This document shows positions 4,741 to 38,994 of a stretch of DNA of 64,000 bases, piece by piece. This stretch comes from Octopus vulgaris. Taxonomy: Eukaryota. Numbering within the stretch: the stretch's first letter is position 1; each line of letters opens with the position of its first letter. Made by a program: the position numbers and the translations under genes. The notes below the pieces were generated by a model. The model made no database searches, was not told the DNA's origin, and saw nothing but the letters and a program-made list of their open reading frames with translations. The stretch covers positions 71,052,001-71,116,000 of the forward strand of contig OX597831.1 in NCBI GenBank assembly GCA_951406725.2. Direction: 5' to 3'.

Positions 4741-5088
4741 GCATGCATCTGCATGCATCTATGTACATATAATGGTTATTCATGTAAGATTGTACACATG
4801 AGAGACAAACAGGCAGATTTCCACGACAAATTCCTATATAATGAAAAAGCAAAATTTCCAACAATAAATGAATTGTTGTTTGTAGAGACTTAAAGAAAAA
4901 CAGATAAAACATCAAAAGAATAGAAAAACAGTAAACCCCAAAATAAACACGAGAAAGCTAGTATGTAAATATATATGTATATATATATGTATTATGTATG
5001 TATGCATGCATGTGTATGAATATATATATACATGAATATTGTAGTTGTATGTTTTTGTATATGTATATAGACATATAAATTTGTAATG

Positions 5089-5135
<47 letters not shown>

Positions 5136-5152
5136 TATGTATATATATATAT

Positions 5153-5209
<57 letters not shown>

Positions 5210-6515
5210 CATACTTATGCACACACATATATATGTATGTATGTATGTATTTTTTAGAATTTTTTAATCCCCAAATACTTTATTTTTCATTCTTTTTTCC
5301 AATTCTTCAAACAAACTTGATATTTCTAAAGAGTGATTTCTAAAGTGTTACTTCTATTAATGTGCAGTTAGTGCTAACACTTATTTCCTGCTGTGCCACC
5401 ACCTCCACCCAAACTCTACCAAAGAGGATATATCCTTTTCTTTTTTCCTTTTTAATCAAGTCAGGCTTTAGTGAAGATAATACAAAGAAAGTCAGCATCA
5501 ACTGAAATTCAATCAAGTAGAAAGATAGACAGATAGAAAAGTGAGAATCATCAGAGAGAAAGAGAGGGAGGAGGGAAAGTGAAAGAGGGTGAAATGATAA
5601 ACATATAAAGGAAGCATTCTGAGAAAGACATTGGCAAAATTGTTAGAGTCTCAGATCGAATGTCTAGCAATATTTATTCCGGCTCTCTGTACTGTGTGTT
5701 CAAATGATATCAAGGTCAGCTCTAGATAGATGAATAAAGTGACTGTCCTGGGGGCCGGCTCTCCTTTCTCTCTCTTTCTCTTTCCTTCTCTCTCTCTCTT
5801 TCTCTTTCCCCCTCTCTCTCCCCCTCTCTCTCTTTCTCTCCTCCCTCTCTCTCTCTTTCTCTCTCAGTGAATTTTACCTATAATTCAAACATCCCATCTT
5901 ATAGCATCATATCATTAGGGTACATACGTTTCTGAAATATATAAATTCTTGCTCTCCCAAGTTGGTGGAATGGTGGAATAACCAAATGATCAATGTGGAT
6001 ACTATTGAAGAATCTGGTATTCATAAAAAAAACATTATAACTCTTCTGAATTAGAAACAGAAATATGGTGTGGTACACTACATAAGGTAAAGGGTCAAAA
6101 GAAAATAAAAAAACAGAAGAACTTTGTTCATAAACTGAAGCAGTTTTTACCATAGGAAATTCAAGAGAAGGCACAGCAAATTCAAGTTGGGATGTGCACA
6201 GAGTGAAGGAGAGTAACTGGTGCTCTCCTGCTGATACTCCCAGGGTGTTGCCAACTTGGGCATTCATTACTTGAAACACTGTTCATCACCTGAGACGCTT
6301 TATGCTTGAAAAATTGTTCATAAACTAACTTATTGATGATGAGAGGAATTTTGTAAACAGAGGATCCACAGTATATCAGATTTACCTACCCACCCCCCTT
6401 TTCTGTGAATCTATCCCCATACTTTCTTTATATTCACCTTAAACCTTGAAGGTACAACCTCACAATCTCTCCCACCCAGCTAAGGCCATGTATTTATTTC
6501 TTCAACAAGATGTTG

Positions 6516-7133
6516 GTGAAGCCCGACCTTCGCTCTTTAGGTCTCACCGAGGAAATGACCAAAGACCGAAACCTTTGGAAGTATGCTGTGCGTGAGAAGA
6601 CCCGGCAGGACAAGTGAGGCCATAACCCGTGGCCTCTACCTTGGATGTAGTCAGTCCACCTGTGCATACCTTCCTTCTTGGGACACAAAACTCTACTTGT
6701 GAAGACCTGTTGAGGCAAGTGAAAATCAAAATCGAAATCGATCAACATCAATGGAATTTGTAGTTGTGATACCAGTGCCGGTGGCACGTAACAGGACCAA
6801 TTCCGCATCACCTGGTCTCGGTGCTGGTGGCACGTAACAAACACCATCTGATTGTGGCCGTTGCCAGCCTCGCCTGGCCTCTGTGCCCGTGGCACGTAAA
6901 AAGCACCATCCGAGCGTGGCCACTTGCCAGCCTCATCTGGCACCTGTGTCAGTGGCACGTAAAAAGCACCCACTACAATCACGGAGTGGCTGGTGTTAGG
7001 AAGGGCATCCAGCTGTAGAAACACTGCCAGATCTGACTGGGCCTGGTGCAGCCTTCAGGCTTCCCAGACCCCAGTTGAACCGTCCAACCCATGCTAGCAT
7101 GGAAAGTGGACGTTAAACGATGATGATGATGAT
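6516..7133 (+). mobile_element. 5'-truncated RTE LINE (family RTE-1): ORF2 C-terminus, 3' UTR and (GAT)n tail
   Basis: 6516-6617 translates VKPDLRSLGLTEEMTKDRNLWKYAVREKTRQDK*, the RTE DLxxxGL..DR..W motif. The UTR has GGTGGCACGTAAAAAGCACC repeats and a GAT tail. Confidence 0.85.
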
Positions 7134-7189
7134 ACCAGCTCCTACCCACTTATATTTTCATATTCCTCAATATATTACACTCTGTTGAT

Positions 7190-7470
7190 GGGCCTTATGT
7201 TGCAAGTATTTGGTGACCTCACCAGTGCTGGTGCCATGGAAAAAGCACTCAGTAGATCTTGTGAAGTGATGTTAGGAAAGACATCCAGCCATAGAAACCA
7301 TACCAAAGCAGACATAGCAGTTCAGTGCAATCCTCTGGCACTTCAGTTCATATAAAACCATCCAACTCATGCCAACAAATGAAAAAAGGGATGATGATAA
7401 TAATGGTGATGATGATGATGACGATGACGACAACGATGATGATGACAATGATGACAATGATAATAATAAA
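7190..7470 (+). mobile_element. Older, diverged RTE 3' UTR with GAT tail
   Basis: Similar to the preceding UTR (AAAAAGCAC..GTTAGGAAAGACATCCAGCCATAGAAAC), followed by (GAT/GAC)n. Confidence 0.65.
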
Positions 7471-8544
7471 TTGTTAGAAATTATTGACAATGTAAAATAG
7501 AAAAAATTATAAATGAATTTTTTAATAATTAAATATAAAAATAGAAATAGTGGAAAAGTAATTAAAGAATATCTAATTTTTTTAAAAATAATTCAAGGTG
7601 AATTCATGAAGACAAAATAAATATTTGCTTCTGAAAAAGAAATTAATTCTAAACATTTTAGAGTGAAGAGGAGAACAAAGGTTGCAGCACTTACGTATCT
7701 TTCAATTCATTTAATTTACTTTTTTTCCCTCAGTGGGAGTAATTGATGAGAAATTATTTTATCCCATAAATTGAAACTGGGCTACAGCTTTTGTTAATTG
7801 GGAACTTGAAGCTATTCTGTGATATTCATAACTATAGCAATAACATTGCTCTATTGTATAAATACATTCCTTGGGGAGAGAGAGACAAGATTGTAGTTAA
7901 CTCCAAATACTAGCTGGTAGCTATTTATATGAGGTGATGGAGGGATGAAAGATAAAGTCTATCCTTGTGCGGACGTGAGTTTGTGTGAATGTGAAGGCAA
8001 ATATGAGTGTCTATCTGATATCTGCATCTGTACACCTCTGTTAAAATCTATAGGATTTTAATGTAGAATGAAAAGAGCCACGATTGAAGATAACATGGCA
8101 ATTTTGACCAATCTTCAACTGATTTTGCCATGCAATCATCATCATCATTTTACATCTGGTTTTCTGCACTAGCATCCTGTCGATCATTCCAGTTCTTCGA
8201 CGTCTGGCACACACAGCAACAAAGAAAAGCTTGTCTGTTCTAGTGCATATGCTGTATCCAAGTACCTTTTCTATCTTCAACCATTCTACAAAGTGTAATC
8301 AGTGCAATTTTCATGCTACCAGCACTAACATGATTGTCCCTGACAGGATTAAATACTATCCTCAACTCTGCAACACTTTTAGACATTTTAGTTATTTATT
8401 TATATATTTATCTATTATTAAACCTAGGTTTGCAACTGGATGAATCTCCTCTCACCAACCATTTCTCTGAACGTTGATTATAAAAATGGTCACAAAATAA
8501 TGATCAAAGGAGGTACAGTTGCATAAATGAGTTCCATTTGTTGA

Positions 8545-25871: not shown

Positions 25872-27552
25872 CAGGGTCTTGCAGATAAATTGAGACAATT
25901 TTTATGATGCATAAAAATGGTTATAAATGCTAGAATAATGGTTGTAGACTGATATAATTTTAATGTAGAATTTATTACATAAACATGTCACTCTTTTGGG
26001 CAATTACTGCCCTCCACACGAGAACAAATTTTTTTGGCAGCTGCTGCAACCCCCACCATTTTGATTTTGCATATTGCATGCATGATGCAAGTCTTCCAAC
26101 TGTTGACACTTGAGTGTGGTGAAGCATTGGTCCTTGCTTGAAGTACATTCCATAAAGAGTAATTGAGAAGGTTGAGATCTGGGCTATTACAAGGCCAGAT
26201 GTTGCCCTCACATGAAATGGCACCTTCTCACCAAGGAAGGCCTATGTTGCTTTTGACTCACAGCATGGTGCAGAATCCTGGATAAGCATTACATTGTCAA
26301 ACCCAAACCTCTGCTCCATCCAAGGTAACAGAGAGTCCTTCAGGATGTCCAAATACTCCTTTGTGCCAATCTTCAAGCCAGCCTCAATGAACTGTGGATC
26401 CATGACACTTTCATCACTTGCCACAGCTCCATATACCTATTTCTTTACTGCCCACAAGGGGCTAAACACAGAGGGGACAAACAAGGACAGACAAACAGAT
26501 TAAGTCGATTACATCGACCCCAGTGTGTAACTGGTCCTTAATTTATCGACCCCGAAAGGATAAAAGGCAAAGTCGACCTTGGCGGAATTTGAACTCAGAA
26601 CGTAACGGCAGATGAAATGTCTATTTCTTTATTACCCACAAGGGGCTAAACACAGAGGGGACAAGCAAGGACAGACAAACGGATTAAGTCGATTACATCG
26701 ACCCCAGTGTGTAACTGGTCCTTAATTTATCGACCCCGAAAGGATGAAAGGCAAAGTCGACCTCGGCAGAATTTGAACTCAGAATTTAACGGCAGACGAA
26801 ATACTGCTAAGCATTTTGCCCAGCATGCTAACGTTTCTGCCAGCTCACTGCCTAATACCATCACAGTGGCAGGATTCTAAGTTTCAAATACAGGGGCGGA
26901 TACCAGAAGTGTTGTATGCAATCACCTGAGGATTTCTGCGATTCACCTCAGTGTCCACAGTTAACTTCTTCTCACCCGCAAACATGAGAATTTTCCCTGC
27001 ACTTTGATGCTTGTTGAATGACAGAAGCTTTGGACATCTCTTGGCTCTGGTTGATTTGGCCTTGGCTGTTAGGAGGTGACAACATCATTGAACATAGTTA
27101 GTTATGCCAAGGTTCTTGTTCACAGCTCTGGATATTGTGGAAAGGGACAGGTGTTTCTTTGCAAGAGTTGTCATGGATATGGATGGGTTGGCTTCAGTCA
27201 AGTGTTTGAGACCAGTGAGAAACTTTGGATTCTGTTTGGAATCACTTTGAGTCTTGTGTTTTTCCCTATCAATCTTTCCCTGTTCTTTAAATTGTTTGTA
27301 CACATGATAAATTGTTGCTTTTGTAAGTTTCATCAACATCACAACTTTATTGACAATGTACCCAGCACATGCCAAAATAACAATGGTAGAATGATTCTGT
27401 TGTTCCGTGACTTTCTTCTGTCGAATCAGTTCACTATTTACCTGAAAACTAAAGAGGTAGATAAGATTTTCAAGCAAGGTTTTGTTAAAAAAATTAGTTA
27501 TAAAACCCACTAAGTCTACTGCTTAAATTTGTCTCAATTTATCTGCAAGACC

Positions 27553-30369: not shown

Positions 30370-30390
30370 AAAATAGAATAAAGGTATACA

Positions 30391-30764
30391 AGCAAACAAC
30401 TGGTTATCTGGTCTGATTATGACAGTTGCTAGAATAAGAACAGGCTGGGAAAAGTTCAAGGAGCTTCTATCTTTGTTGGTAACAAAGGGCTTTTCTTTCT
30501 TAATAAAAGACAGATTATATGATACTTGTGTTCAAATAGCTACATTACATGGTAGTGAAACATTGACTGTGATTTCAGAGGACATGCAAACAAATGAGGT
30601 CAGCATGTTTCGTTGGATACAACTTGAGGGCAGAAATGAATGTTTCAGGAGTTTAGATAACACGAGATCGATAAAACCACCTGAAGCATTCATTTCTACC
30701 CTTAAGTTGTATCAACATATAAATATATAAATGTCATAATCTGACCTGATACCAGTTGTTTGCT
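30391..30764. repeat. Fold-back palindrome whose left arm is interrupted by a 200-bp inverted copy of 29050-29249
   Basis: 30391-30424 pairs with 30732-30764, and 30616-30648 pairs with 30680-30713. Confidence 0.85.
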
Positions 30765-31109
30765 GGTCTGTACTTCTAATCTATTATACAGGGACCAGTT
30801 TGATTGAAGCACTGCCTATAACCAATACTCATTTAGGCAGCTGCAACATCTCTGCATTTTTAGTTACAGTTCAAATTGAAATTTAGACAGAACAACAGAT
30901 TGATCACTGGTTGTATATACTTATTATCTTATGTCCTCAGATGTAATTGTACCTGAAATTTATATAATTATCATCATCATTTAGCATCCACTTTCTATGC
31001 TGGCATGGTGTGTGTGTGTGTGTATACACGTGTGAGTCATCTTAGTGACCATAAGTCAGAGAGAAGTGGGTATATTATCCGAAATGTACTGTATTATATA
31101 TCCATCACA

Positions 31110-31200
31110 GCTGATCATACTAATCAGTTTCGTGCAAGGAACACAATGGAGTGTTAGGTAACAATCTGCTCATATAACCTTACGCTCATCAGACTTAGCC
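31110..31200 (-). ncRNA. Type I hammerhead ribozyme-like motif
   Basis: Minus strand: CUGAUGA-GCGUAAGG..CCUUGCAC-GAAA-CUGAUUAG-UA. The core is intact and stem I is imperfect. Confidence 0.7.
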
Positions 31201-31217
31201 ATATACCCTCCCATATT

Positions 31218-31309
31218 GGCTAACTTTGACGAGTGTAAGGTTATATAATCGGATTGTTACCTAACACTCCATTGTGTTCCTTGTGTGAAACCAATTGGTA
31301 AGATCAGCC
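31218..31309 (+). ncRNA. Type I hammerhead ribozyme-like motif (C3>U variant)
   Basis: GGCUAACU-UUGACGA-GUGUAAGG..CCUUGUGU-GAAA-CCAAUUGG-UA-AGAUCAGCC. Confidence 0.65.
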
Positions 31310-31441
31310 ATGATAGATATATAATACTGTACAGTTCAGATAATATATATATATACATATTAATAGTAGAGTAGCCCATCAGATTAATGTAAAACTGTTT
31401 TTATTATAACAATATAAAAACAAACATTAATGCCTAGTTTT

Positions 31442-31861: not shown

Positions 31862-33219
<1,358 letters not shown>

Positions 33220-37793: not shown

Positions 37794-38275
37794 TAATAAT
37801 AATAATAATAATAATAAAACATTGTGTACAGTGCCCAGGTGCACTACAACTCATCTAAAGTGTATGTATAGTACATAGGGTAATGTACAAGCGTCAGGAA
37901 AAGAACAGTGCATGAGTCATGACATACACATATGTGTATGAGTATGGAAGGGGGACAATCAGATGTAGTTTCGGCGGATTTCGGAAAGCATGAGGGCCTT
38001 ATAGGATGCAGTGTCATGGCAGTCAACAACTGATGCCAGCAGTCTGTTCCATGCTTCAGCAACTCTGAGCGTGAAAAAATGTTTCCGAAAGTCATGGGAG
38101 CTGTGCTGTTTTCTGACTTTGTAGGTATGTCCACGTGTCTTGGACACATGGAGATCAAAAAGGTGTTCAGTGTTGTTGTTGGTGAGGTGGTTGATAACTT
38201 TGTGGGTGTTTACCAAGTCCATCGCCAGACGCCGGAGCTTCAGTGAATCCATGCCCAGGGAAACAAGGCACTCAT
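37794..38275 (-). mobile_element. 5'-truncated CR1-clade LINE with (ATT)n tail
   Basis: LGMDSLKLRRLAMDLVNTHKVI..TRGHTYKVRKQ..RKHFFTLRVAEAWNRL, the CR1 ORF2 C-terminal motif. Confidence 0.9.
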
Positions 38276-38994
38276 CATCATGAATGCCTGAAAGCAATTA
38301 TGGCCAATTGCATTTTGAGTTCAAATCCTGTTAGTTTTCACTTTGTCTTTCATCTTTCAAAAGTCAATAAAATGAATACCAGTAAATTACTGATTTGGAT
38401 TTAATCAGTTAAGACTTTCTCCAAAATCTTCAGACTTGTACTTAGTCAGAAATTATCATAATCATCATCGTTATTTGTTATTAATAGCCTTATGTCACTG
38501 GAGACTGAGTCTTTGAATTAATTTGTATCCCAGTTCTGGCAATAGTCTCTGTCAATTTCTTCTATTCATCCAGAAGTAAAACAGAGATTTTGTTTCTCTG
38601 TTCTTCCTTTTTTTTATTTCTTATTTTTTTCTTCTTTTCATTGCTGAAATATGAAGATAATATTGCAAGTGAGAGGTGTATATGCTAACCATCTCTACCA
38701 GCCAGTACTGCAGACACTACAAATAAATATTATCTGTTCAATAAATGACAATGATTTATTCCAAAACAATACAAAACTAAAAGAACTTTTTGAAATAACA
38801 TACTCATAACAAGTTATACTGGTAAAATAATTCCACTCCATTACACCATTGTGAATGCATTTTTTTATGATTTGTTTTCGTTAGTTTTGTTTGTTTTTTT
38901 ACAGTCTACAATCAAATAGTCGCCAGTTAGTTGTTTAATAGTATTTGATCTTTGGATAATTATCTTAGATGAGATGTTTACCAAACTTCAGTCC

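Follow-up and report, generated by a model that had tools for sequence, protein, structure and literature searches.

Two inverted hammerheads in an octopus palindrome: a probable decayed head-to-head insertion of Penelope-like element 3' ends

Opposite-strand hammerhead pairs and inverted pLTRs are already published features of Penelope-like elements (PLEs). For Schistosoma, a 2014 study described dual PLE hammerhead motifs on opposite strands, separated by 100-700 bp (PMC4209133). According to the sections of PMC8557442 available to us, the Hydra clade of PLEs is marked by a CxCX5C linker, no Cys between GIY and YIG, a CxxC before the E and a CxH after the N, and one member of the clade, Hydra-1_Obim, is listed for an octopus. 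A separate octopus study counts 31 recently active Penelope-like families, and its accessible part does not mention ribozymes (PMC13282606). An anole PLE cuts and extends both strands in vitro, starting at two sites that bound the tail; in the same account, as far as it is accessible, it is modelled as a dimer, and cleavage is not needed (PMC11167929).

Here we describe an imperfect palindrome carrying two hammerhead motifs in a 64-kb stretch of Octopus vulgaris DNA (hereafter, the window). We put at roughly nine in ten the probability that it is a decayed head-to-head insertion of two short, hammerhead-bearing 3' ends of a Hydra-clade PLE, one of them tailed, which likely arose in a single event and likely has no ribozyme function today. 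On its own it is an unremarkable stump of a dead retroelement, of value for the statistics that its family provides on PLE insertion.

Layout of the palindrome and its hammerheads

The palindrome with two inverted hammerheads noticed by the first-pass annotation is real. Its arms (31071-31201 and 31217-31347) are 131 nt each, 85% complementary and separated by a 15-nt gap. The full palindrome has a predicted fold of -164.3 kcal/mol (z -18.5), which 0 of 100 shuffles equalled; folded singly, the arms do no better than shuffles (z -0.8 and 0.07). The limits first drawn for the element, 31071..31347, hold for the arms and fall short on the left, where the minus-strand arm continues to about 31030 as a tail of some 40 nt (31030..31070, minus strand). 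This extension, a hallmark of PLEs that was overlooked at first and is confined to the left arm, was recognised from a profile match (31200-31030, to reference end 1040) and from a pairwise alignment with the tail of another copy, L007. The window tail has an internal deletion of about 25 nt, the tail of other copies being about 65-70 nt long.

The tailed arm (31071..31201, minus strand) is a 5'-truncated 3' end (pLTR) of a Hydra-clade PLE. Its tailless partner (31217..31347, plus strand) stops at the family's internal 3' end (reference 976-979). At the junction (31198..31216, plus strand), sequence from upstream of the plus arm passes into the minus arm via a self-complementary ATAT, an arrangement that belongs to a recurrent class. 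Microsatellites of the target type flank the element on both sides: GT/TA on the left (31008..31029), identified from the sequence and from a family-wide flank count, and TA on the right (31348..31360), identified from the sequence. The 64-kb window contains no other copy of this old family and none of its young sister family (see below). Neighbouring frames include one of 301 aa (31984-32889, plus strand) that we take to be a mariner transposase frameshifted close to its end, one of 145 aa (27085-27522, minus strand) that is presumably the DNA-binding part of a Tc1-type transposase, and two (30377-30730 and 37959-38297) that we assume to be C-terminal pieces of LINE reverse transcriptases.

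Read from the centre outward, each arm has the layout of a type I hammerhead, with a loop II of 38 nt. The minus-strand motif (31108..31201) comprises CUGAUGA (31192-31186), GAAA (31131-31128) and the GUA triplet (31120-31118). Its core is perfect, as first annotated; the eight positions then ascribed to stem II form seven pairs and one C-A mismatch, both inner stem I pairs are gone (U-U, G-G), and the motif is predicted to be inactive. In the plus-strand motif (31217..31310), UUGACGA (31226-31232) is followed by GAAA (31287-31290), CCAAUUGG and GUA (31298-31300), and the stem I pairing claimed for this arm was confirmed. Stems I and III are whole, stem II has 8 pairs, 4 of them G-U, and the predicted cut falls after 31300. 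A U3-A8 hammerhead variant is on record (PMC4209133); we rejected it for this arm, in which C3 has become U and G8 is unchanged. A search of Rfam returned no hammerhead match at E<=10, only hairpin miRNA models below their gathering scores. Stumps of this kind resemble both MITEs and miRNA hairpins, and may be wrongly annotated as one or the other.

Compared with the type I pattern (CUGANGA, GAAA, NUH and three stems), each window arm fails in one element. We aligned 141 arms from 94 of 98 non-redundant loci, after excluding 26 duplicate or off-family loci, and the column-majority letters conform to the pattern throughout, with an intact core and all three stems paired, so that the intact ancestral ribozyme proposed earlier holds. 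One stem II pair is G-C in 50 of 119 arms, A-U in 44 and mismatched in few, which suggests a single compensation at the level of subfamilies, not many, and a fold that mattered in the master elements. Among 89 arms not chosen by core or loop patterns, we detected no selection on the hammerhead core after insertion: core sites were kept in 805 of 849 cases and other non-CpG sites in 4610 of 4938 (p=0.11), the corresponding figure over all loci being inflated by pattern-picked loci. Core adenines were slightly better kept than other adenines (415/424 vs 1544/1631), and the complete hammerhead skeleton is retained in 11 of 75 arms.

How would a transcript of the palindrome behave? It follows directly from the head-to-head layout that a read-through transcript of either strand yields the antisense arm first. 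Fold prediction for the whole palindrome assigns negligible probability to the hammerhead helices and a penalty of about 90 kcal/mol to imposing them, in agreement with the earlier suggestion that the long hairpin outcompetes the catalytic fold. A read-through transcript would fold as a hairpin, not as a ribozyme, and both window arms, damaged as they are, would be locked in it. A hairpin of such predicted stability could conceivably have been co-opted as a source of endo-siRNA or as an editing substrate that silences the family, and PLE small RNAs have been reported, in the material available to us, from rotifer and fly. We regard this as very unlikely: the arms have diverged by 15%, like those of other pairs, with no sign of retained pairing. 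In the contigs of two runs that we guess to be RNA, the locus matches only short pieces with 4-7 mismatches, which may belong to other copies and weigh neither for nor against its expression.

Parent family and the head-to-head form

Both window arms represent the pLTR, or 3' end, of an old Penelope-like element of the Hydra clade. Forty scored candidates out of 2139 gave at least 80 matches to the palindrome, 72-91% identical, and a 33-nt motif from upstream of the arm has 37 exact matches in the genome. In two loci (L039, L045) the arm continues 5' via about 550 nt of 3' UTR into the C-terminus of an endonuclease. In an arm-only scan, eight of nine long loci carried RT and EN remnants 5' of the arm and on its strand; in the ninth (L116), the arm linked to RT and EN was matched with a longer reference. 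This adjacency to RT/GIY-YIG remnants elsewhere in the genome bears out the derivation from inverted PLE pLTRs favoured by the first-pass annotation.

Pfam GIY-YIG matches in the family remnants are weak only and below cut-off (E 0.16 and 0.013). The CxCX5C linker is present in L034, L116, L121, L122, L124 and L064. There is no CCHH and there are no cysteines between GIY and YIG, and a CxxC precedes the E and a CxH follows the N (L039, L117, L124). A Neptune/Nematis label, which goes with a CX2-5CxxC linker and a CCHH finger, was dropped for lack of this combination; the Hydra definition fits. Hydra-clade proteins also carry RWK and DKT near the N-terminus; we saw these two motifs only in the sister-family ORF, the old-family copies examined being 5'-truncated before that point. 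No copy recovered from the old family was intact or full-length, the 150 scored protein matches included no intact master, and the mapped loci contained no short direct tandem hammerhead array; a partial tandem of pLTR, ORF and pLTR, seen in the young sister family (L115), was not recovered for the old one. Next to its old-family copy, L121 also contains pieces of another, more distant PLE family (5084-5572 and 1176-1461, both minus strand).

Doubling head to head is the usual insertion form of the old family. Among loci chosen by tail alone, 21 of 30 are head-to-head (first 30 of 83 matches), and two whole hammerheads occur in four of these 21. Loci picked by loop II (29 distinct loci from the first 30 of 160 matches) include 10 head-to-head cases by script, 9 of which were accepted after rejecting L095. 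As most doubled copies lack a second whole hammerhead and opposite-strand pairs had been reported by 2014, the idea of an undescribed ambisense ribozyme element, also put forward at first, had to be abandoned. We assembled 36 tight pairs, found largely with palindromic queries and hence biased towards palindromes, whose arm ends, like all those of old copies, are profile envelopes accurate to about 5-10 nt. One tail is present in 25 of these pairs and two in 3; the remaining 8 do not resolve into a single tail and a cleanly tailless partner. Dinucleotide microsatellites lie at both outer ends of 25 pairs and at one or both ends of 32 (background 177/1200); the outer ends of the palindromes sit in these microsatellites, where target duplications cannot be read.

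Could the palindrome replicate whole, as a MITE-like unit or an ambisense retrozyme that keeps a ribozyme on each strand? Look-alikes of nearly full length number at least 40 in the genome (2139 candidates, 40 of them scored), and the junction class of the window recurs in 7 of the 36 pairs (L001, L003, L006, L011, L012, L014, L023), as replication of a unit would have it. However, this class, centred on the self-complementary ATAT, is shared by three subfamilies and lies either way round with respect to the tail, and junctions otherwise differ among doubled copies. In a tree of 56 arms, the arms cluster by subfamily and not by side, with no separate clades of tailed and tailless arms: the tail label needs 25 changes, against 19.2 in shuffles, and all 500 shuffles need 25 or fewer. 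The absence of side-specific clades, the varied junctions and the recurrence of one class across subfamilies and orientations argue that the palindrome is rebuilt at each insertion.

Other features point the same way. Arm lengths of inverted copies form a continuum from 50 bp to kilobases, the core is kept no better than the sequence around it, and few arms retain the full skeleton. A MITE or other DNA transposon would have symmetric fixed termini and move as a unit, whereas these copies have an asymmetric tail and varied junctions. Arm divergence is 16% within pairs, against 21% between loci, and an arm has its partner as nearest neighbour in just 9 of 62 cases; subfamily sites agree within pairs in 230 of 276 comparisons, against 51% in shuffles (maximum 66%). 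Movement of the palindrome as a unit with a constant loop, which the first-pass annotation had raised as a point to check, is largely refuted, and we give it next to no credence. L106 and L107 (G000:C6:128.859 Mb), palindromes that share a junction and lie about 600 bp from each other, are probably a local duplication.

A protein search revealed the young sister family through many near-identical copies with a 717-aa frame, 39% identical to the old family over the linker-EN stretch. In L115 (G000:C5:53448500-53458400), the ORF (5971-8121, plus strand, 717 aa, with RWK and DKT) lies in a 2.59-kb unit with a tail of about 70 nt, a variant hammerhead core, CCGAAGA (U4 to C), and inverted and partial tandem copies at 99.8-99.96% identity. 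The hammerhead motif of this family has 3,195 exact matches in the genome and its tail 3,019. Judging from these sequences, it is a young, probably active Hydra-clade PLE with about 3,000 near-identical copies. Contigs of four out of four runs cover the ORF, the RNA nature of these runs being a guess. The first 100 of the 3,195 hammerhead matches fall into 67 clusters, of which 25 are head-to-head and none tail-to-tail. Exactly one outer tail, scored by exact match only, is present in 23 of the 25 head-to-head clusters and two tails in none (p=8e-6 vs independent tails); small palindromes with two hammerheads account for 6 of the 25. The young family, whose ORF is intact and whose near-identical copies number in the thousands, makes the PLE insertion mechanism directly testable.

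5' ends and the route of insertion

In both families, 5' ends accumulate just before the hammerhead core. In the old family, 31 of 81 starts fall in the 50-nt bin before the core and 7 in the bin upstream. In the young family, the 41 nt preceding the core contain 19 of 53 listed starts and the next 34 nt upstream none, in a list that includes 2 duplicate rows and 4 starts at one position that probably mark a diverged subfamily. We considered a footprint of ribozyme cleavage and rejected it, since the foot of stem I, rather than the cut site, is where the ends gather: 1 of the 53 young starts lies at the cut site, and 4 of the 81 old starts lie within 5 nt of it, about as an even spread over the stretch predicts. 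The pile-up may reflect an RNA start, a splice-acceptor-like AG or a local hairpin. A short imperfect hairpin lies directly upstream of the core, and the fly Penelope intron has been described as terminating at helix I (PMC4209133). Just 5' of the hammerhead in L039, L032 and L045, near the 5'-end hot spot, CTAAT is followed 17 nt later by AG, an arrangement reminiscent of a branch point with its splice acceptor; at the corresponding position the young family shows a run of pyrimidines and TAG.

How do two truncated 3' ends come to lie head to head? We lean slightly towards two separately primed cDNAs that are joined. The element's enzyme would cut both strands in a TA microsatellite, and each DNA end would prime one cDNA, at the tail end for one and at an internal site about 65 nt upstream for the other. 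Both cDNAs would terminate prematurely, with the foot of hammerhead stem I as the commonest stopping point, and their 3' ends would then be joined, here via the self-complementary ATAT. A more specific proposal, to which we give a little under even odds, is that the template RNA begins discretely at the foot of stem I, the hammerhead marking this beginning instead of a cut, and that a dimeric enzyme primes at both break ends, using the tail end and the internal site. If true, stumps of this kind would be a genomic record of how Penelope-like elements insert.

The same parent might also give rise to the palindrome by self-primed fold-back, in which an antisense template or cDNA would form a hairpin and the endonuclease would trim one arm at an internal TA-like site. 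Self-priming has been proposed for PLEs (PMC3846280), and the tail has been ascribed to endonuclease resolution (PMC8557442), as far as these accounts are accessible. The imperfect hairpin just 5' of the core would suit such an event, as would the observation that the starts of the two arms often differ by no more than about 20 nt in young pairs, even at positions far upstream (2110/2124, 2112/2121, 1015/1035). However, simple snap-back of a target-primed, tailed cDNA needs the tailed arm to be the longer, and in 12 of 21 tail-picked old pairs it is the tailless arm that reaches further 5' (the tailed in 5, equal in 2, with 2 two-tailed calls), as in several young pairs. This counts against simple snap-back and favours two joined cDNAs primed at both break ends. 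Relative to the tail, the ATAT junction is found both ways round, and most single copies are tailless, as internal initiation predicts; both observations also weigh against fold-back, which we regard as possible, if somewhat doubtful. Dual priming and self-priming with trimming give an identical final sequence.

Comparison with described elements

The origin of PLE inverted repeats and tails and the role of the hammerhead are treated as open questions in the available parts of PMC8557442 and PMC11167929, and the present counts constrain the mechanism: copies are never tail-to-tail, nearly always have one tail, often have the longer arm on the tailless side, and have 5' ends at stem I. A search of the PLE literature, made mostly without subscription papers, turned up neither a count of the one-tail rule nor a proposal of dual priming. 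The repeat library of PMC13282606, a source accessible in part, may include both the old and the young family, and the supplements of 10.64898/2026.07.22.740005 may list such families.

The family described here shares with the Hydra clade, including Hydra-1_Obim, the CxCX5C linker, a GIY-YIG without Cys between its halves, the CxxC, the CxH and (TA)n targets, and with Hydra-clade PLEs in general a canonical hammerhead near the 3' end (PMC8557442, in the sections accessible to us). The peptides of Hydra-1_Obim are closely alike by eye (TEAGCSCR). It is nevertheless a different family: the hammerhead here combines a 38-nt loop II with a 3-bp stem III, three motifs of our family have no match in the supplement of PMC8557442, and Hydra-1_Obim is listed, in the available part of that source, without a pLTR, whereas the present family has inverted pLTRs and a 65-70 nt tail.

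With the PLE hammerheads described in the accessible part of PMC4209133, the present motifs share the type I form, an 8-bp stem II, a small palindromic stem III, numerous decayed solo copies and opposite-strand pairs; they differ in their long loop II and in being predicted from sequence. Non-LTR retrozymes, as far as their description is available (10.64898/2026.07.22.740005), are likewise non-coding, PLE-derived and equipped with a type I hammerhead. Retrozymes, however, are direct tandem repeats, and the palindrome is inverted and shows no sign of replicating as a unit.

The closest likeness in form is with inverted pLTR insertions (PMC3846280; PMC8557442), which, in the portions accessible to us, share a head-to-head 5'-truncated copy, a tail at one end, microsatellite targets and palindromic junctions. 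Compared with these published cases, the pLTR here stands alone, and the tail measures 65-70 nt instead of 30-40. The one-tail rule and the asymmetry of arm lengths, both counted here, go beyond the inverted-pLTR descriptions in the same portions of those two sources.
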